This document shows positions 14,408 to 43,888 of a stretch of DNA of 43,888 bases, piece by piece. The stretch lies in the NCBI GenBank assembly GCA_031856995.1, contig GCA_031856995.1_4356.1; one strand, 5' to 3'. The notes beneath the pieces were generated by a model, which ran no database searches, was not told the DNA's origin, and saw only the letters and a program-made list of their open reading frames with translations. The position numbers and the translations under genes are program-made. The stretch's first letter is position 1, and each line of letters opens with the position of its first letter. Source of the stretch: a phage.

Positions 14408-14436
14408 TTGCGTACCCCAATATAATAGGGTACTAT
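14408..14436 (+). promoter_or_regulatory. sigma70-like promoter with palindromic core, driving the + strand island
   Basis: TTGCGT-17 nt-TACTAT with ATAATAGGGTACTATTC core; same element as at 32985-33013 and 34873-34901. Confidence 0.6.
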
Positions 14437-14451
14437 TCACTTACACCAACA

Positions 14452-16610: not shown

Positions 16611-16640
16611 AAAGGCCCCGAAAGGGGCCTTAGTTTTATG
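16611..16640. terminator. Bidirectional rho-independent terminator (end of + island, after major tail protein gene)
   Basis: GGCCCCGaaaGGGGCC hairpin with A-run upstream and T-run downstream. Confidence 0.75.
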
Positions 16641-20908: not shown

Positions 20909-20967
20909 AATTTACCTCTTAGTAAATGAAAAGAGGGACCGAAGTCCCTCTAGATTATAGCTTAACC

Positions 20968-22017
20968 TTAAGCACCGACACCAGTTACCAGGAAGGCAAT
21001 CGGTACGTGCTTACGTTCAACAACACGGTTCCAGTTAGAGGCGTTCGCCAGGTCCTGCCAGGAAGCAGAACGTGCGACAGTCTCGGTGCCGTTGCCGGTG
21101 ATCACCGCGCCGGTGAAGCTGTAGCCCAGCGGGTGCAGTAACCAGGTCTTACGGGTCCACAGGGTTTCTACGCCACCACCGTTGCCGCGAGACGGTTCGC
21201 GCTCGTATTCCAGCGGGTTGGACGGAGAACCTTCACCGTAACCGATAGCGCCGTTGCCGAAGATGATGGAGATGAACTTACGGGTCGAGCCAGTACCAAC
21301 TACAGTCATGCTGTCATCAACAATCACGCGGTATCCCTGGTAGGTGGCGAACAAGGTGTCGTTGTCGGCGTCTTTGATGAAGTCGATAAGCTGCTGCTTA
21401 CGTGCCTGCGCATAAACGAAGCTGTGCATCGCGATAGCACCCAACACTTCACCGCCGTTACCCATCAGCGCATCACCCATAGTCTGGGTAGCGTCGATGA
21501 ACGCACCTGCGTCGAAGCCCAGAGTAGCGGACACGTCGATAACCATGTCGTTCTGCTCGTGGTACGCATCGGTAGCCGCTACGTTATCATTGTACAGACC
21601 GAGCGCGGTAGCAATAAGACGGCGTTGTGCCTGACGCTGCCAGAAGTTATCCAGACGGGAAGCCACGGATTGCAGCGGATTCTGGCTGGTCAGTTCTACC
21701 GTCAGGTCAGCCTGACCAAAACCTTCGTTCAGGTAAGCTACGCGAACATCCATCTCACCGGTTTGCACGTTACGCGGGGTGGCGACGTCCTGATATACGT
21801 CGTTCGAGTAGTTCGGCTCGATAGAGGTATCAATAGCTTTCCAGTACGGCAGGACCGCTTTGTTGGACGGGCCGTTTGCGATAGCGGCGGCATACGGAGT
21901 CGAGGTAAGGATACCGGACTGGAAGAACGCGGTTTTCTCTACCGGGTCCTCTGTCATGTAGGACAGGATTACCGATTCTTTACCAGTTACGATGTCGCCG
22001 ATAGTAGTAATTGCCAT
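20968..22017 (-). CDS. major capsid protein
   Basis: 349 aa; GAGGA RBS; directly after scaffold gene; position and size. Confidence 0.75.
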   Translation of the reverse strand: MAITTIGDIVTGKESVILSYMTEDPVEKTAFFQSGILTSTPYAAAIANGPSNKAVLPYWKAIDTSIEPNYSNDVYQDVATPRNVQTGEMDVRVAYLNEGFGQADLTVELTSQNPLQSVASRLDNFWQRQAQRRLIATALGLYNDNVAATDAYHEQNDMVIDVSATLGFDAGAFIDATQTMGDALMGNGGEVLGAIAMHSFVYAQARKQQLIDFIKDADNDTLFATYQGYRVIVDDSMTVVGTGSTRKFISIIFGNGAIGYGEGSPSNPLEYEREPSRGNGGGVETLWTRKTWLLHPLGYSFTGAVITGNGTETVARSASWQDLANASNWNRVVERKHVPIAFLVTGVGA

Positions 22018-22721: not shown

Positions 22722-22803
22722 AGTCAGTATGTCCCCTGGACGTTGGAACCCGGGCCACCCGGATTTACATGTCAAGAATAAATTATTCCAACATGCAAGG
22801 CAA

Positions 22804-23067
22804 CTATTCCAGAATATTCCTCACGTAGTCCTGCAACATGAACACTTTCAGCCTCAGTTGCCGTACGCATTCGGCGTTCTGAACGTCGATAGCCAAATCC
22901 TCGTCAGCGTCGTTACTTGGCGGAGCCAGTTTGCACGGCGGCTGCATCATTGTCGTATCCGGGGATGGAATTAGCGTTTGCGACGGCGCTGGACTTGAGC
23001 AGGACGCGAGCATCGTCGAAAGTGCACACGCTGCGACCAGGCGTTTTAATGTACTTAACGACTTCAC
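22804..23067 (-). CDS. o-spanin (Rz1-like outer-membrane lipoprotein)
   Basis: Lipobox LASC after signal sequence, Pro-rich mature part; out of frame inside 3' half of i-spanin gene. Confidence 0.7.
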   Translation of the reverse strand: MKSLSTLKRLVAACALSTMLASCSSPAPSQTLIPSPDTTMMQPPCKLAPPSNDADEDLAIDVQNAECVRQLRLKVFMLQDYVRNILE

Positions 23068-23299
23068 GGGTAATTACCTCTGATTTCGTCTTGCCTTCGT
23101 TGTCAGCGGCTGCGGCCTTTGATTCGTCCTGCTGCTGCCGTTGTGTTTTCTTCGCCAACTCAGCCTGTGCTTTCTGCTGTTGCTGAGAAACGAGATTCGC
23201 CCGGCCTTCGTTCCAGCCGCTGCGGTACTGGTAGATGCCGTGTGCGTAAGCCAGGATGACGAAACATGCTCCTGCTACGACAGTTGCTTTAAGATTCAT
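22913..23299 (-). CDS. i-spanin (Rz-like)
   Basis: N-terminal TM anchor VVAGACFVILAYAHG, Gln/Ala/Lys-rich coiled-coil periplasmic part; AAGGAG RBS. Confidence 0.7.
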   Translation of the reverse strand: MNLKATVVAGACFVILAYAHGIYQYRSGWNEGRANLVSQQQQKAQAELAKKTQRQQQDESKAAAADNEGKTKSEVITREVVKYIKTPGRSVCTFDDARVLLKSSAVANANSIPGYDNDAAAVQTGSAK

Positions 23300-23550
23300 G
23301 TTTCTCCTTTCTCGATAAGTAAAGCCCCGCTTTAAGGCGGGGCGCTAGTCCTTATCATTTAAACATAGAAACGGCGTAATCTCAGTAAACCCGTTACTTT
23401 TTACACGAGCAATAGAGTATGGCCCTTCCGAACGCGTCAGCGTAACTACACTCATGACTTACGTCCCGCTCCGTTACCTGCCCGCGCCGCGGTCGCTTGT
23501 TCATACTTCACAAGCTCAGGTGGAGCTTAGCACATTTTTAGTGAAAAGTC

Positions 23551-23566
23551 AACTATTCGAATAGTT
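23551..23566. promoter_or_regulatory. Perfect 16-bp palindrome AACTATTCGAATAGTT
   Basis: Direct reading; half-sites are those of the recurring promoter palindrome but in inverted arrangement. Confidence 0.5.
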
Positions 23567-23604
23567 TATTCCTACATTTACAATTTGGTGGAATAACTGG
23601 AATA

Positions 23605-23632
23605 ATCACAGGCATTAAAAAGCCCCTTTCGG
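23605..23632 (-). terminator. Rho-independent terminator
   Basis: GCCCCtttcGGGGC hairpin with T-run on - strand. Confidence 0.7.
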
Positions 23633-23641
23633 GGCCTAAGT

Positions 23642-24103
23642 TTATTCTGGCTTAGTGACCTTCGCCGCTTTGCTGACAGCCTCTACACCATCGGCATCAG
23701 TAACTTTAACGAAGTATTCCCCAACAGAATTAACCGTCAGAGACAAAGCCTCTTCCGGGGCGTTAACCACTTCCTTCCCGTCTTTGTACCAGGTCAGCGC
23801 ATATGGTGCTTTGCCCGCCTTAACTTCGACAGCGATATTTGCGCTGCCGTCTGCCAGTTCAGCGTCCTGCGGTTGTACGGAGAAATACACATCACCAGCA
23901 TCCGCCAGGTACTGAATCTCATAAAGCATGCCCGCCGCCGGTAGCGCAATACCGGTTTTATCTGCAAACGGCATATCGTCTACGGGCGCACCCAGTACAC
24001 TTTCATCTTCAATAAATACCACGTTCTCGCCGGAGCCAGGCACACGGGCGTACTGGACTACGCGACGCGACGGTACATCAGTTACTTTGAAAAAGCCCAT
24101 CAT
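23642..24103 (-). CDS. Ig-like domain protein
   Basis: APYALTWYKDGKEV...GEYFVKVTDADG Big-like signature. Confidence 0.55.
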   Translation of the reverse strand: MMGFFKVTDVPSRRVVQYARVPGSGENVVFIEDESVLGAPVDDMPFADKTGIALPAAGMLYEIQYLADAGDVYFSVQPQDAELADGSANIAVEVKAGKAPYALTWYKDGKEVVNAPEEALSLTVNSVGEYFVKVTDADGVEAVSKAAKVTKPE

Positions 24104-25179
24104 TATTCCCCTTTCAGATAATCAGCAACACGTTTATCGAGTTCCGCCATCTGCTTAAGCGTGAGCGGATTCCCGAAACCATCTACAGATATTACGCGAA
24201 ACTCTTCCGGCGATATACCGCTGTTACGGAAAATCTTACCCCGCACCGGGCCTAGAGCCTGGTCCTGAAACCATGCCGGTTGTTGTTTCAGGAACTCGTA
24301 GTAAGTGGTGTCTGCGCTTACCTGAGTACCTCCGTCCGCACCCTTAGCCGCGCGTTTTGCGCCTTTATCCAGGAAGTCGAACTCCGAACTGATTACCGGA
24401 GCCGTGCACGACCGGCAGTTCGGATGGGCGGGGGGCATCGGCCCTTTACCGATTTCCCACGTCATCCCATCTCTGGCCTTGCAAACGGCTGAGGTCCTAG
24501 AATCAAGAGTAGACACCCACTCATATTTCTCGATAATGTCGTCGTTCTGGCGGTACGTCTCATTACGGGCTTCGTTGGACACGTGGGACAGCGCGGTGCG
24601 GATTACTGTAGCAGCGTGTTTCTCTGATACGTCAGCCAGGCCGCCTTTACCAACTACTTCTTTAACAATCTGCCGTGTGGTTTGGCCTTGCACAAAGCCC
24701 ATCTTAACGCCAGTTACAAGGCGCGCGACCTCCGCTTCACCCCAGCCTGACATCAGCTTGGTGAAGTCAACAGGCTTGTCGCTCAACGATAAGGGTTGAA
24801 ACTCGGCGGCGGCCCACACCTGTTCAGCGGTAGGCGTAACAAATTCCGCGTTTACGTTGGCGGTCAGTGTCTTTACGTTCCACTCCGCCTCATACGCCGC
24901 CAGTTCCTTAAGGTCTTCTGTCAGCTTTGTTTGCCAGTCAACTGTAAGTCCAGCCAGTGCTTCTTCAAGGTCGCGTAACAGTTTATTCAGCCGGGCGGTG
25001 CTGCGGCCATCATCGCCGAATAACAGCACCTGCCGTTTGATTTCGTCCCGCATCTCCTGAATGAACGGTGCTAGGTCTTTCACCTCACCGGATGCAGTAC
25101 GTTGCAGCCATATCTGGTGGCTAATTAGAGATGTAAGTAAGCTCATAGATAAACCCTGCGGTGCTAAAGTTAATAGCAT
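24103..25179 (-). CDS. head morphogenesis protein (Mu F / SPP1 gp7-like)
   Basis: 358 aa directly after portal gene; C-terminal AHPNCRSC motif. Confidence 0.65.
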   Translation of the reverse strand: MLLTLAPQGLSMSLLTSLISHQIWLQRTASGEVKDLAPFIQEMRDEIKRQVLLFGDDGRSTARLNKLLRDLEEALAGLTVDWQTKLTEDLKELAAYEAEWNVKTLTANVNAEFVTPTAEQVWAAAEFQPLSLSDKPVDFTKLMSGWGEAEVARLVTGVKMGFVQGQTTRQIVKEVVGKGGLADVSEKHAATVIRTALSHVSNEARNETYRQNDDIIEKYEWVSTLDSRTSAVCKARDGMTWEIGKGPMPPAHPNCRSCTAPVISSEFDFLDKGAKRAAKGADGGTQVSADTTYYEFLKQQPAWFQDQALGPVRGKIFRNSGISPEEFRVISVDGFGNPLTLKQMAELDKRVADYLKGE

Positions 25180-25215: not shown

Positions 25216-26697
25216 TTACGGCTGAGCGGCGTCTTGTTGCTGTGCCGACCGCGGAATCTCCCCCTCCACCTGAGCAACAGTACCTAACGGCAGCGGCGCA
25301 TCCTCGATAGCGTTCCGAATATCTTCGTCTGTCCAGTCAGTTACACCGGCCTTGCGCAATGCCGCGTAATAAGCAGTAGCGGGTAGCAGGCCAGCGTTAA
25401 TATCCGCCATCCACTGCGCTCGTTCGGGAGCGGTCATCGGTTGCAGGAAGAATTCCATATTCAGCTTGAACTCAATCTCAGTGTCTTCGCGCAACCCAAG
25501 CATCGCCGCTACCCAGCGCAACGCATCGGTATACGCCATGCTTACGTTACGCGCGATTGTTGCCATAACGGACGTATCAGCACCGCGCTGCAGACGGGCC
25601 GATTCAGCGGTGATTTGCTGCGTCGGGGTGATAAGCTGCGCGCCAATCTGGATTGCCTGATTCTCTTTATCCAGCATGTTTTGTTTGGCGAGGTTGTTCT
25701 CTCCTGCCTGAACCAGAAACGCATTGCCGCCGTAGCCGATGTTATGGCCCGAACGCGACCCCATGCGCACACCGTGTGGGTTAGCTTCTTTCCACTGTTC
25801 CATGCTCATATTCTCACCGGGGGCGATGAACAGAGTGGGCTGGCCCACAACGAAACTGGACTCCTCATTGTCTGCGCTGTTACGGAAATGTCCGATATTA
25901 AGCTCAGCCAACGGCAGCAAAGGCGCATCGTCGATAGTAGCGTCGTTGTTGCTTGCACCAATGAACGTGAACGGGATTTTGCCACGTAACTGTTCGCCGA
26001 GTTCCGGGAAGATTTCGATTACTTCACCCTGTGCGCCACCTTCTGCGTCAAAGCGGTAAATGCGCTGACGGTAGCGACCGTCAATCAAATCGAGAACGCG
26101 GTATTGCTCACCGAACTTTGTTTCGAACTCTGCGCCCGGTTCTGAGTATTCCCATACCTCACGCAATACAACCATCGTCACGCGGTTAACTGAACCGACG
26201 CGAGTCAGTCGCCAGTTGATGATGTTCTCTGCGGTATAGAAAGCGATGACCGGGTTTAATAGCCCCGCGTTCTGCTCTGCCGCCGTTGCCGCGGCGGTCT
26301 CCGGGGCGTCAACCAGCAACCCACCACGGCCCACCGAGTCAATCTCCATCAGCGTGTCCTGCGCGTGCTGCCACAGACCAACACCGGAGCCGTCGGTATT
26401 ACGTAACAGGTACTCCAGTTCAGGCGGGATAATCTGCTCGGGGTCTTTGCGCATCACGGACCCAACCATCCCCGCCAGGGTACGTTTAGTAAAGTTGTAG
26501 CAGATAGCGCCGTTCTCGTATTCTTCCTGACGCTGTGCCGCGTAGGTCGGGTCTGGTTCGTTCTTCCCGACGTTGCGCAGGTAACGGATAAGGCCGCCTT
26601 CCAGCGCGTGGCGTACCTTCTGCCATTTATTGAAGTGATGCAGCCATTCCCGGTGTTTAGTCTTAACACCCTGATTCTGACCGTTCATAGTTAACAT
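25216..26697 (-). CDS. portal protein
   Basis: 493 aa ORF immediately downstream of terminase large subunit. Confidence 0.75.
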   Translation of the reverse strand: MLTMNGQNQGVKTKHREWLHHFNKWQKVRHALEGGLIRYLRNVGKNEPDPTYAAQRQEEYENGAICYNFTKRTLAGMVGSVMRKDPEQIIPPELEYLLRNTDGSGVGLWQHAQDTLMEIDSVGRGGLLVDAPETAAATAAEQNAGLLNPVIAFYTAENIINWRLTRVGSVNRVTMVVLREVWEYSEPGAEFETKFGEQYRVLDLIDGRYRQRIYRFDAEGGAQGEVIEIFPELGEQLRGKIPFTFIGASNNDATIDDAPLLPLAELNIGHFRNSADNEESSFVVGQPTLFIAPGENMSMEQWKEANPHGVRMGSRSGHNIGYGGNAFLVQAGENNLAKQNMLDKENQAIQIGAQLITPTQQITAESARLQRGADTSVMATIARNVSMAYTDALRWVAAMLGLREDTEIEFKLNMEFFLQPMTAPERAQWMADINAGLLPATAYYAALRKAGVTDWTDEDIRNAIEDAPLPLGTVAQVEGEIPRSAQQQDAAQP

Positions 26698-30407: not shown

Positions 30408-30436
30408 AATATAATAGGGTCGAGGATAATAGTCAA
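30408..30436 (-). promoter_or_regulatory. sigma70-like promoter (TTGACT-17 nt-TATATT on - strand)
   Basis: Hexamers with 17-nt spacer about 35 nt upstream of ATG 30373; leader contains AACGAGA shared with other phage promoters. Confidence 0.55.
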
Positions 30437-30454
30437 CTAGTCATTACAGAAAAC

Positions 30455-32952: not shown

Positions 32953-32984
32953 TTCGTTTTCCTCTGTCTCGTCTGTGTAAATGA

Positions 32985-33013
32985 ATAGTAGCCTATTCTA
33001 TCTTAGTGTGCAA
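32985..33013 (-). promoter_or_regulatory. sigma70-like promoter with palindromic core
   Basis: On - strand TTGCAC-17 nt-TACTAT; core GAATAGTAGCCTATTC is a perfect 6+4+6 palindrome. Confidence 0.6.
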
Positions 33014-34838: not shown

Positions 34839-34872
34839 TTCTAAATTCCTTATGTCTCGTTTCGATAAGTGA

Positions 34873-34901
34873 ATAGTAACCTATTATGTTGGGGTGTGCA
34901 A
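34873..34901 (-). promoter_or_regulatory. sigma70-like promoter with palindromic core (leftward early promoter)
   Basis: On - strand TTGCAC-17 nt-TACTAT; core GAATAGTAACCTATT. Confidence 0.6.
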
Positions 34902-38211: not shown

Positions 38212-38235
38212 AAGAAAGGGGCGTTACGCCCCTTC
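38212..38235. terminator. Bidirectional terminator hairpin
   Basis: GGGGCGttaCGCCCC with A-rich 5' flank (T-run on - strand). Confidence 0.55.
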
Positions 38236-38439
38236 ACCTAGCGCCAGCCACTTGGCGTCTACTTCCAGCACTTCCGCCAGTTTAAACAGCGTTGCCGGGC
38301 GTACGTCCTGAGTTACCCCGAGTGCAAGCTGGTTAATCGCGCCCTGGGAAACGCCGGCCAGAACAGCCAGACGGCGCTGGGAGATACCGAGTTCTTTACG
38401 GCGTTGCTCTACACGGATGCCTAGTTCAGATGGTTGCAT
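38224..38439 (-). CDS. XRE-family (Cro/CI-like) HTH transcriptional regulator
   Basis: 71 aa; ISQRRLAVLAGVSQGAINQLALG classic HTH; AAGGAG RBS; divergent from + strand genes. Confidence 0.75.
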   Translation of the reverse strand: MQPSELGIRVEQRRKELGISQRRLAVLAGVSQGAINQLALGVTQDVRPATLFKLAEVLEVDAKWLALGEGA

Positions 38440-38503: not shown

Positions 38504-38532
38504 TTGACATGTGAATAGTTCGCTATTATAGT
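38504..38532 (+). promoter_or_regulatory. sigma70-like rightward promoter with palindromic core
   Basis: TTGACA-17 nt-TATAGT; core GAATAGTTCGCTATT. Confidence 0.6.
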
Positions 38533-41599: not shown

Positions 41600-41628
41600 T
41601 TGACATCTGAATAGTTAGCTATTATAGT
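41600..41628 (+). promoter_or_regulatory. sigma70-like promoter with palindromic core
   Basis: TTGACA-17 nt-TATAGT; core GAATAGTTAGCTATT. Confidence 0.6.
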
Positions 41629-42368: not shown

Positions 42369-43888
42369 ATGAGTTACCTGTTCTTAGACTTTGAAACATT
42401 CTCCGAAGCCGATTTGAAGAAAGTCGGTTCCTACGCTTACGCCGAACATCCAACTACCGAAGTGCTAATCTGTACATATGCTTTTAACGACCAGCCTGTA
42501 CAGGTATGGGATTGCACCGACGGCAGCGATATGCCGGGCGATTTGTATCGCGCGTTACGCCGCCTGGTTAAGCCGAACAGCCGCGTTAAGATGGTGTGGC
42601 ACAACGGCTCAATGTTCGATAGGCTCGTCATGAAACACTGCTGGGGTTTTGACATTCCGGTAAGCAACACCATTGATACGATGATTTGGGCGTTTCGTCA
42701 CGCGCTGCCGGGTTCGCTCGATGCGCTGTGCGAAGTGCTGGGCGTGTCCGCCAACAACGCGAAAGACAAACGCGGCAAGGCGCTGATTCAGCGTTTCTCT
42801 AAACCGACGCCGAAGAACTACAAAATCCGCCGCTACACCGCTGAAACACATCCCGATGAGTGGGCGCTGTTCATCAAGTATGCCGTTAGCGACATTACTG
42901 CGATGCGTGAAGTCTTCCATAAGCTGCCGCGGTGGGGTAACTCGGAGTTCGAAGACCGTGTACTGGAACTTGACCAGTTAATCAACGACCGCGGATTTAA
43001 GGTTGACGTCGCACTGGCGGAAGCCGCGATTGAAGCCGTAGAGAAGCACAAGGCACAGTTACAGGAAGAAGCTCAACGTAAATACGGCGGCTCGCTTACC
43101 GGTAAAGACTTCCTTCCGATTCTGCGTGAACTTGCGCCCGCGCACCACATACACAATGCACAGAAGTCGACGCTTAACGACCTGTTGGCAGATGATGATT
43201 TACCGGACGACGCCCGGATGATTATCGAAATGCGCCTCGGGGCCGCGTCAACAGCGTCCACGAAATATAACCCGCTGCTGTTAGGCCGCTCGTCGGACGA
43301 CCGACGCCGCGGTTGTATCCAGTACGGTGGGGCAAAGCGTACTCTGCGATGGGCCGGTAAAGGCTTCCAGCCGCAGAACCTGGCACGCGGTTACTATCAC
43401 GATGATGAGCTGGATAAAGGCATTTCGGCGTTACTTAAGGGTCGCGCCCATCGCCGTTTCGATGTGGCCAAGCTAACGGCATCGACCGTTCGTAGCTGCA
43501 TCATACCGGAAGCAGGGCATAAGTTTGTCGTTGCCGATTACTCTAACGTCGAGGGCCGCGGTCTTGCGTGGCTGGCGGGTGAAGACGATTTAATCGAAGT
43601 ATTTGTAAACGGGGTTGATGTGTATAAGAAACTCGCATCAACGGTGTTCAATGTTGCATATGAAGCCGTAACAAAGGACCAAAGACAAATAGCCAAAGCA
43701 ATGGTTCTGGGACTCGGCTACGCGGGGGGCGTCGGTGCTTTCGTCACGTTTGCTAAAAACTTAGGTCTTGATTTGAATGACATGACTAACACTTTAGACG
43801 GTACATTCCCGGACCATATTTGGGCCGCTACCGCACGCGGATACGAATGGGCGCGTATTCAGGAAGCCAAGCGACCACCACGTCCTGG
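42369..43888 (+). CDS. DNA polymerase, family A, N-terminal part with 3'-5' exonuclease motif (ORF runs off window end and continues at 1..729)
   Basis: ATG 42369 after TAAGGGTCG; MSYLFLDFETFS contains Exo I-type D-x-E; no stop before 43888; in frame with ORF at base 1. Confidence 0.85.
   Translation, partial: MSYLFLDFETFSEADLKKVGSYAYAEHPTTEVLICTYAFNDQPVQVWDCTDGSDMPGDLYRALRRLVKPNSRVKMVWHNGSMFDRLVMKHCWGFDIPVSNTIDTMIWAFRHALPGSLDALCEVLGVSANNAKDKRGKALIQRFSKPTPKNYKIRRYTAETHPDEWALFIKYAVSDITAMREVFHKLPRWGNSEFEDRVLELDQLINDRGFKVDVALAEAAIEAVEKHKAQLQEEAQRKYGGSLTGKDFLPILRELAPAHHIHNAQKSTLNDLLADDDLPDDARMIIEMRLGAASTASTKYNPLLLGRSSDDRRRGCIQYGGAKRTLRWAGKGFQPQNLARGYYHDDELDKGISALLKGRAHRRFDVAKLTASTVRSCIIPEAGHKFVVADYSNVEGRGLAWLAGEDDLIEVFVNGVDVYKKLASTVFNVAYEAVTKDQRQIAKAMVLGLGYAGGVGAFVTFAKNLGLDLNDMTNTLDGTFPDHIWAATARGYEWARIQEAKRPPRP
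43812..43888. repeat. 77-bp terminal direct duplication of bases 1..77 (assembly overlap / circular permutation)
   Basis: Exact identity between 1-77 and 43812-43888 by direct comparison. Confidence 0.95.

Follow-up and report, generated by a model that had tools for sequence, protein, structure and literature searches.

Between the gene for an Ig/Hoc-like protein and the spanin gene Rz, the phage genome examined here (NCBI GenBank assembly GCA_031856995.1, contig GCA_031856995.1_4356.1) carries a gap of 342 base pairs (bp) at 23300-23641 that holds a regulated promoter and a new family of structured leader RNA of a known general kind, for which the functions discussed below are proposed from sequence comparison. 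The window, by which we mean the whole stretch of 43,888 nucleotides (nt) that was analyzed, is a Kagunavirus genome (Guernseyvirinae), a match that holds along its full length. We consider it somewhat better than an even chance that expression of the spanin unit is controlled from this gap, by a regulated sigma-70 promoter with a cis-acting leader or attenuator that serves the spanin, scaffold, and capsid genes. An earlier description of the region (the original prediction) had offered a regulated promoter, a small RNA, and a packaging-related site as possible contents. The genes around the gap all lie on the minus strand, and the region is therefore to be read reversed; in that direction its layout is a terminator, a cluster of half-sites, an operator over the -35 hexamer, an extended -10 promoter, a leader of about 200 nt, and the Rz ribosome-binding site. 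The main comparison set consisted of 37 Kaguna-type and 8 Jersey-type versions of the leader, with loci denoted by L numbers.

Predicted Promoter and Operator Sites

The promoter occupies 23524-23552 on the minus strand, with a -35 hexamer TTGACT (23547-23552), a 17-bp spacer, a TG dinucleotide (23531-23532), and a -10 hexamer TAAGCT (23524-23529), the features of the extended -10 class being present together as TTGACT-17-TGcTAAGCT; transcription is predicted to start at about 23516-23517. Among the 37 Kaguna-type and 8 Jersey-type leaders, both hexamers and the TG hardly change while the spacer varies, the -35 being altered only in L022; the Jersey-type promoter reads TAGACT/TTGACT-17-TGnTACGCT. 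This pattern, together with an overlapping operator of a kind shared with four early promoters, supports the regulated promoter that had been put forward, and a promoter has also been annotated independently at the equivalent place in phage phi135. No further promoter was recognized, by eye or by consensus scan, between the two hairpin terminators and Rz; Rz and Rz1 would therefore be made only by polymerases that pass the terminal hairpin of the leader.

The operator-type site GAATAG-TTGA-CTTTTC (23543-23558, minus strand) lies over the -35 with its centre at about -33.5, all centres being computed with a transcription start 7 nt past the -10, and has one mismatch to GAATAG-N4-CTATTC. In the whole genome, sites of the form GAATAG-N4-CTATT[AC] with at most one mismatch occur only at 14423, 23543, 32983, 34871, 38513, and 41609. 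The operator stands inside the spacers of four strong early promoters, at 38513-38528 and 41609-41624 on the plus strand (promoter form TTGACA-17-TATAGT) and at 32983-32998 and 34871-34886 on the minus strand (TTGCAC-17-TACTAT), which confirms the promoter palindrome to which the original prediction had referred. The site at 14423-14438 is next to or over the -35 of a further promoter, and an operator-like site with two mismatches (30427-30442) covers the -35 of the promoter at 30408-30436. This distribution suggests a genome-wide network of the operators of one regulator, the obvious candidate for which is a protein of 71 amino acids (aa) with an HTH_3 (Cro/C1-type) domain, encoded on the minus strand at 38227-38439 and divergent from the operator-bearing promoter at 38504; it was the only Pfam match among the ten early proteins scanned and is the predicted reader of the GAATAG half-sites.

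Half-sites are dense in the region: six GAATAR half-sites within 90 bp form the densest cluster in the genome, against at most three in shuffled sequence, and the half-site GAATAGTT has six copies against 1.5 expected, a number reached in 0 of 100 shuffles. The perfect 16-bp palindrome AACTATTCGAATAGTT that had drawn attention to the region is present at 23551-23566 (written as AACTATTC|GAATAGTT, with its centre at about -41.5/-42.5), where it is the sole match even when three mismatches are allowed, and it consists of the left arm of the operator at 23543-23558 and one arm of the inverted repeat GGAATAA-A-CTATTC (23559-23572, minus strand, centre at about -48). Perfect 16-bp palindromes occur at chance level (two in the window against 0.6 expected, and at least one in 98 of 200 shuffles), and the weight of this one rests on its half-sites, position, and conservation, not on length alone.

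Comparison with related phages, which had been proposed as a check, found the promoter and the leader structure conserved and the palindrome intact only in most Kaguna-type relatives, being absent from the Jersey and GRNsp27 types. Its half-sites are indeed swapped relative to those of the promoter palindrome, as had been observed, but the arrangement conserved across genera is not the palindrome; it is the neighboring GGAATA-N1-2-TATTC repeat together with the TTATTCC repeats. The former reads GGAATA-CT-TTATTC in the Jersey type and GGAATAA-A-TTATTCC in GRNsp27 and pink, at an equal distance to the -10. The latter, the two direct repeats TTATTCC-AG-TTATTCC (23590-23605, minus strand, about -74 to -89 from the predicted start), correspond to the tandem GGAATAA copies reported earlier, which lie at 23590-23596 and 23599-23605, and are kept in Kaguna-type, Jersey-type, pink, and GRNsp27-type phages. 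Upstream of Rz in Klebsiella phage 37P2 (L193:1500-1782), another repeated word, TTGCGAGT, including the palindrome GACTCGCAAAATTTTGCGAGTC, stands in place of GAATAG; because this different word is found at the equivalent place, we read the control architecture as conserved while the recognized sequence changes.

The Leader RNA

From about 23517 to the start of Rz, 218 nt hold no conserved open reading frame (ORF). On the minus strand, as for all parts of the leader, the RNA opens with the 5'-terminal hairpin P1, GCUUGU-N9-ACAAGC (23495-23515), which is 100% paired in Kaguna-type sequences, with changes from U-A to U-G, and whose position is still taken by a hairpin where the sequence differs (ACGCU-UUC-AGCGU in the Jersey type, UUCGU-UCU-ACGAA in the GRNsp27 type). 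Separated from it by GA, or by A in the Jersey type, follows P2-P5, an irregular hairpin of 65 nt (23428-23492) composed of CCG/CGG, a bulged C, GGCGCG/CGCGUU, CAG/CUG, GUAAC/GUUAC, an internal loop GGA/GUA, GC/GU, a GA bulge, and GGGAC-GUAA-GUC(A)U, and after it the conserved GGAAGGG (23423-23429). The internal loop GGAGC/GAGUGUA is invariant within the Kaguna type and the apical loops vary freely. The internal loop may have a loop-E-like GUA/GA arrangement; a kink-turn was considered there by eye and rejected because of ill-placed GA positions. Stem P5 contains a mismatch in the window and its closest relative, owing to a private change from C to A at 23455.

Several lines of evidence bear on this structure. 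The minimum-free-energy fold of the minus strand is identical to the hand-built model of P1, P2-P5, and the terminal hairpin, and the plus strand folds 16 kcal/mol less well. In an alignment restricted to Kaguna-type sequences, 96.0% of the cells of the 5' domain are paired, against 27-40% with slid partners; four pairs change on both sides, and none of 500 shuffles reaches the covariation score. A covariance model built from the Kaguna type recovers Jersey-type leaders at expectation values (E) of 1e-5 to 1e-6 and pink weakly (E = 2), with no match in 15 unrelated control loci. RNAalifold, run freely on an alignment that includes the Jersey type, returns 23 pairs, 12 of them compensatory, and recovers P1, P2, P3, P4b, and P5. 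These changes indicate that the leader is a real structured RNA, kept by compensation across Kaguna- and Jersey-type phages.

The middle of the leader (23357-23422) is highly conserved in sequence within the Kaguna type, with a variable patch at 23413-23420, and holds a second copy of the 5' arm of P1, GCUUGUG (GCUCGUG in the window). A pairing of this downstream repeat with the 3' arm of P1 was considered and dropped: the repeat tracks P1 in three lineages, but this was not separable from shared ancestry. The terminal hairpin (23314-23356) has a lower stem GAUAAG/CUUAUC and an upper stem GCCCCGC-N6-GCGGGGC (23324-23343), followed by the tract UUUACUUAU. The GC hairpin previously placed near 23323-23343 is thus present, and on the minus strand it is the 3' part of the non-coding RNA. 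Five versions of the upper stem occur, all with 7 of 7 positions paired (C-G, G-C, A-T, or T-A at one position), and the lower stem is wholly swapped between the Kaguna type and the Jersey type, which has UAUACG/CGUAUA. The terminator scan calls the hairpin terminator-like, its 7-bp stem being all GC; the Kaguna-type tract passes the threshold of the scan, yet it is interrupted and pairs with the upstream A-rich arm, and the Jersey type has UUAGCGUAU. The Rz Shine-Dalgarno sequence (23304-23309) lies 4 nt past the hairpin, with 10 nt from the hairpin end to the GGAG core. We regard the terminal hairpin as a putative weak terminator or attenuator, or possibly a processing site.

The covariance search against Rfam that had been suggested matched no known RNA family: the Rfam 15 models gave no match at gathering score in the window, and within 23200-23750, searched to E of 10, only chance matches with E above 1. 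ARAGORN found no tRNA or tmRNA. A mini-ORF after the Shine-Dalgarno-like GGAAGGG (UUG-CUU-GUG-UAA in the Kaguna type, six codons in the Jersey type) was rejected, having no counterpart in GRNsp27 or pink.

Conservation and Breadth

Identity to relatives is 95-96% over the promoter and the RNA, against 78-88% over the Rz, scaffold, capsid, and MuF genes of the same relatives. Homologues of Rz were found in 545 phage records, with Kaguna-type leaders in 181 records and Jersey-type leaders in about 270. Beyond these types, a hairpin-rich, apparently non-coding leader of 250-330 nt stands directly before Rz in Cornellvirus, GRNsp27, FSL SP-031, pink, Hafnia TS33, Shemara, TS6, SE1, and Pantoea AH01; all sampled Guernseyvirinae lineages have a structured leader before Rz, with the exception of the Klebsiella phages 37P2 and Kp4885-1, which were not classed. 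The leaders of the other lineages are built from modules, one 5' module being related to that of the Kaguna and Jersey types and a second, unrelated 5' module following a TGTATAAT promoter, and the 3' module that they share has a GC hairpin at its end, with no U-tract after it. That 3' module (L191-L199: Shemara, GRNsp27, pink, Hafnia TS33, Pantoea AH01, TS6, and SE1), which lies about 120 nt before Rz, contains two hairpins, CGGCAAC...GUUGCCG and GUGGGG...CCCCAC with a conserved loop UUCGCUUUAGGCUAC, and shows compensatory variants between lineages.

In Shemara, TS6, SE1, and AH01 the gene after Rz1 is reverse-oriented, and it is therefore the spanin pair, not the scaffold or capsid gene, that always accompanies the leader. 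The covariance model finds one copy of the leader per genome, and in a sequence search only the hairpin of the upstream terminator recurs. Scans of metagenomes and genomes with an Rz alignment added few variants, and a pattern scan of the collection for TTCGGAAGG-N8-16-TTGCTT was discarded as too unspecific, returning at least 120 matches that were mostly due to chance.

Proposed Function and Known Systems

In the mechanism that we propose, transcripts of the terminase, portal, MuF, and Hoc-like genes would end at the strong terminator that precedes the half-sites, and transcription would begin afresh from the extended -10 promoter near 23517. The 71-aa Cro-like protein would bind the operator over the -35, and a phage regulator probably sets the timing of the promoter, given the extra GAATAR half-sites upstream. 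The leader would act in cis, setting the share of transcripts that reach Rz/Rz1, scaffold, and capsid and the stability of these transcripts, and the remaining ones would stop as a short RNA of about 200 nt. P1 probably protects the transcript end, and P2-P5 is the candidate control element, for which the possible modes include termination, Rho, processing by RNase of the terminal helix of 16-20 bp, and a direct, put-like effect on the polymerase. In the window phage, the spanin transcription unit runs on into the scaffold and major capsid genes.

The closest parallels to this arrangement come from well-studied control regions. Late control in phage lambda uses the promoter PR', a leader of 194 nt (6S), and the terminator tR' ahead of the lysis and head genes, with read-through dependent on Q. 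The window resembles it in the succession of a promoter, a non-coding leader of about 200 nt with a terminator-like hairpin, and then Rz/Rz1 and head genes, and in the overlap of the promoter by a protein-binding DNA site, here a predicted one. It differs in that no Q-family protein is annotated (PHROG-based names) in the 98.6% identical genome PQ417132, in that the leader is strongly structured and conserved, in that its hairpin is poorly suited to termination and is without a U-tract in the sister genera, and in that holin and endolysin are encoded in other parts of the genome. As regards a -10-like pause element, the Jersey type repeats TACGCT 3 nt past the -10, the Kaguna type has TGAGCT without the key A2, and the GRNsp27 type has none. 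Bacterial 5' leaders provide a further precedent, both as attenuators with Rho- or hairpin-dependent termination in the leader and as 5' stem-loops that stabilize mRNA, such as the ompA 5' hairpin. The element at hand shares with them a long, untranslated, structured leader with one hairpin at the extreme 5' end and another before the first ribosome-binding site; unlike such attenuators, it has no alternative terminator/antiterminator pairing supported by covariation.

The predicted operator network, with a short inverted repeat, a small HTH protein, and several promoters whose core elements are overlapped, would be like the Cro/CI-type operators of temperate phages. The operator over the -35 is nevertheless flanked by extra half-sites (0-bp and 1-bp spacing and direct repeats), unlike those operators, and unlike temperate phages the 98.6% identical relative has no integrase or lysogeny function in its annotation. 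The put RNA of HK022 (putL and putR) is a cis-acting antiterminator that binds RNA polymerase (PMC9378689). Two stem-loops directly after a sigma-70 promoter, the conservation of stems and internal loops over apical loops, and terminators downstream are common to put and the leader. The leader element is nonetheless longer (about 90 nt against about 70 nt for put), occurs once per genome, and has no detectable similarity to put in sequence or structure, in a search that used the leader model and not one built from put; by eye the two share no motif beyond GC-richness.

Alternative Explanations

A free, trans-acting small RNA of about 200 nt, with its own promoter and its end at the 23324-23343 hairpin, that pairs with or sequesters a host or phage target and for which the adjacency of Rz is incidental, would account for the promoter, for the terminator-like 3' hairpin of the Kaguna type, for a conservation that exceeds that of the neighboring genes, and for the very strongly conserved, seed-like 23357-23400 that lacks clear structure. 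We nevertheless regard it as unlikely. No U-tract follows the terminal hairpin in the Jersey, Cornell, and other lineages, so transcripts must enter Rz, and it is for this reason that a 5' leader of the spanin transcript is favored over a free small RNA; of the small-RNA option raised in the original prediction, the structured RNA is thus upheld by the compensatory changes and its independence is not. The Kaguna-type tract UUUACUUAU is moreover poor for Hfq-type small RNAs, 12-mers complementary to the RNA occur in the phage genome only at chance level, a search for a target of its conserved unpaired stretch found none, and the element is always directly upstream of Rz. An antiterminator of the put kind, independent of other factors, in which P1 and P2-P5 would bind the polymerase and carry it past the leader hairpin and later terminators, is in our estimate still less probable. 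HK022 putL has two stem-loops that begin a few nt past the start and are 1-2 nt apart (PMC9378689), a layout that the leader matches as described there; the stems and the internal loop are conserved and the apical loops variable, terminator-like hairpins lie downstream at 23324-23343, 20932-20951, and 16612-16631, and no antitermination protein is annotated in the 98.6% identical genome. Against these stand the 5'-domain covariance model, which finds no match at E of 10 or below in the whole HK022 genome, although that genome holds putL and putR, the single copy of the leader in each genome, and the lineages with a reverse gene after Rz1, which keep a long leader with another 5' module, so that a long co-directional operon is not required.

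Two further explanations we hold to be very improbable. The region contains no convincing ORF, as had been stated, but two of 36 aa, neither of which is conserved. The one at 23394-23504 on the minus strand could be a small protein gene, being annotated as a hypothetical protein in Sciku and others and intact in 30 of the 37 Kaguna-type leaders. It is, however, frameshifted or lost in the other seven and missing from all eight Jersey-type leaders despite their retention of the RNA structure, its substitutions are mostly nonsynonymous, and its ATG lies in the P1 loop without a good ribosome-binding site; the second ORF owes its ATG to the private C-to-A change at 23455. The 'hypothetical protein' of many GenBank records is therefore, on this evidence, probably not a gene. 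A site acting at the level of DNA, either an iteron replication origin or a packaging site with hairpins in the DNA, would fit the iteron-like repetition of the TTATTCC/GAATAG half-sites. The pairing, however, is strand-specific and relies on G-U pairs, with the minus strand 16 kcal/mol better; the element is present once per genome; the cumulative GC skew turns near 35 kb and has no inflection at 23300-23641; and the same half-sites occur in ordinary promoter spacers elsewhere in the genome. The packaging-related site that had been envisaged finds no support in these observations.

A number of points also weigh against our preferred reading, the spanin-unit control region. The -10 hexamer fits the consensus at only three of six positions, for which reason the promoter was missed by the consensus scan, and the operator centred at -33.5 would predict repression and does not account for activation of the promoter. 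The alignment that includes the Jersey type was fitted to the model and is hence biased in its favor; both partners change in 16 of its 30 pairs, and 96.3% of its cells are paired. For the leader as a whole, the thermodynamic z-score amounts to only -1.3, and the middle 65 nt give weak, one-sided support for small hairpins. The U-tract is broken in the Kaguna type and absent in the Jersey, Cornell, and other lineages, and intrinsic termination therefore cannot be the general mechanism. An antiterminator pairing of the 18 nt before and in the 5' arm of the terminal hairpin with P4b/P5, in which truncated Kaguna-type RNA does fold, was rejected for lack of covariation: it is broken without compensation in L004, L027, L174, L022, and L032, and the Jersey type uses another partner. 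Published transcript or 5'-end data for the region were not found, the Kagunavirus transcriptome paper giving per-gene expression only, and the literature on Kagunavirus and Guernseyvirinae transcription yielded no description of the leader RNA or promoter.

Gene Layout and Neighboring Features

The best match to the window is Escherichia phage vB_VIPECOTH07, with 98.6% identity across 22800-24200. The 77 nt that open the window recur exactly at its end (1-77 and 43812-43888), and the window is for this reason a complete circular assembly with a true genome length of about 43,811 bp. On the minus strand, the genes for the portal (25216-26697), the MuF-like head morphogenesis protein (24103-25179), and the Ig/Hoc-like protein (23642-24103) precede the gap, which is followed by Rz with Rz1 embedded in it (22913-23299), the scaffold gene, and the major capsid gene (20968-22017). 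Between the Rz1 stop and the scaffold start (22776-22809, minus strand), a second inverted repeat GGAATAA-T-TTATTC stands directly before TTGACA, after which comes a hairpin CCGGG-TGG-CCCGG; a recognizable -10 was not seen there, and the site may serve the regulator as another binding site or act as a weak promoter, internal to the unit, for the scaffold and capsid genes.

The portal, MuF-like, and Hoc-like unit is closed by an intrinsic terminator at 23617-23636 (minus strand), read from sequence as GGCCCC-GAAA-GGGGC and then TTTTT, with the hairpin at 23622-23636 and the T-run at 23617-23621. It had previously been placed at 23605-23632; the hairpin and T-run are as reported, the position is slightly off, and the terminator ends the upstream Hoc-like gene. 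The same site is labeled a terminator in the annotations of phages Sciku and phi135, and its hairpin sequence is reused at other terminators of the genome. The consensus terminator scan did not list it, likely since the stem extension takes up two of the tail T's, so that a terminator missing from its list may well exist.

Many Kaguna-type relatives (L003-L036, for example L005:1570-2205 and L036:1555-2205) have additional ORFs, variable and 37-179 aa long, inserted after the upstream terminator and ahead of the TTATTCC repeats, at a point homologous to about 23606-23612 of the window; these run in the reverse orientation. Each inserted ORF has its own early-type promoter with an operator, and the leader promoter and the leader are unchanged, a pattern that marks this point as an apparent insertion hotspot sparing the leader promoter. 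The sole match of the promoter scan in the region, TTTACA-18-AATAAT with TG (23577-23606, plus strand), is at chance level, points into the upstream terminator, and overlaps the GGAATAA repeats; it may be a remnant of the divergent promoter of the insertion-bearing relatives. A 'tRNA-Ser' that is annotated in two Jersey-type records, and annotated or called at L171:576-653 (Salmonella phage templet) and L043:2154-2232, was rejected. It is on the other strand, where it covers the final part of the Hoc-like gene together with the upstream terminator; since ARAGORN reports it in only 1 of 12 related loci, we take it for a probable false positive, and it does not belong to the leader RNA.

Significance

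The leader emerges from the comparison as a new, strongly covarying RNA element, the best-conserved stretch of the head-gene region and absent from Rfam. The Guernseyvirinae, with the K1-specific and other Kagunaviruses and the Jersey-like Salmonella phages, rank high among the isolates obtained for therapy and biocontrol, and a description of their late-gene timing was not found in the literature. The predicted operator network would place the early promoters and the late-gene promoter at 23524-23552 under a single Cro-like regulator, and the spanin genes of most of the subfamily (the sampled lineages except the two Klebsiella phages) lie behind a long structured leader.

A bolder proposal, to which we assign a low probability, is that the 5' domain (P1 and P2-P5 with the GGAGC/GAGUGUA loop) represents an RNA of a new kind, with the transcribing polymerase itself or a host factor (Rho or an RNase, for example) as its target. 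If this is true, the domain would set when the spanin and capsid genes are expressed in virulent siphophages lacking a recognizable late activator, sigma factor, or Q/N protein. It would then be the functional counterpart of HK022 put without being related to it in sequence, and would occur throughout an entire phage subfamily. Should the leader control read-through or the stability of the mRNA, by whichever route, it would be a control point for the timing of lysis and the yield of capsids.

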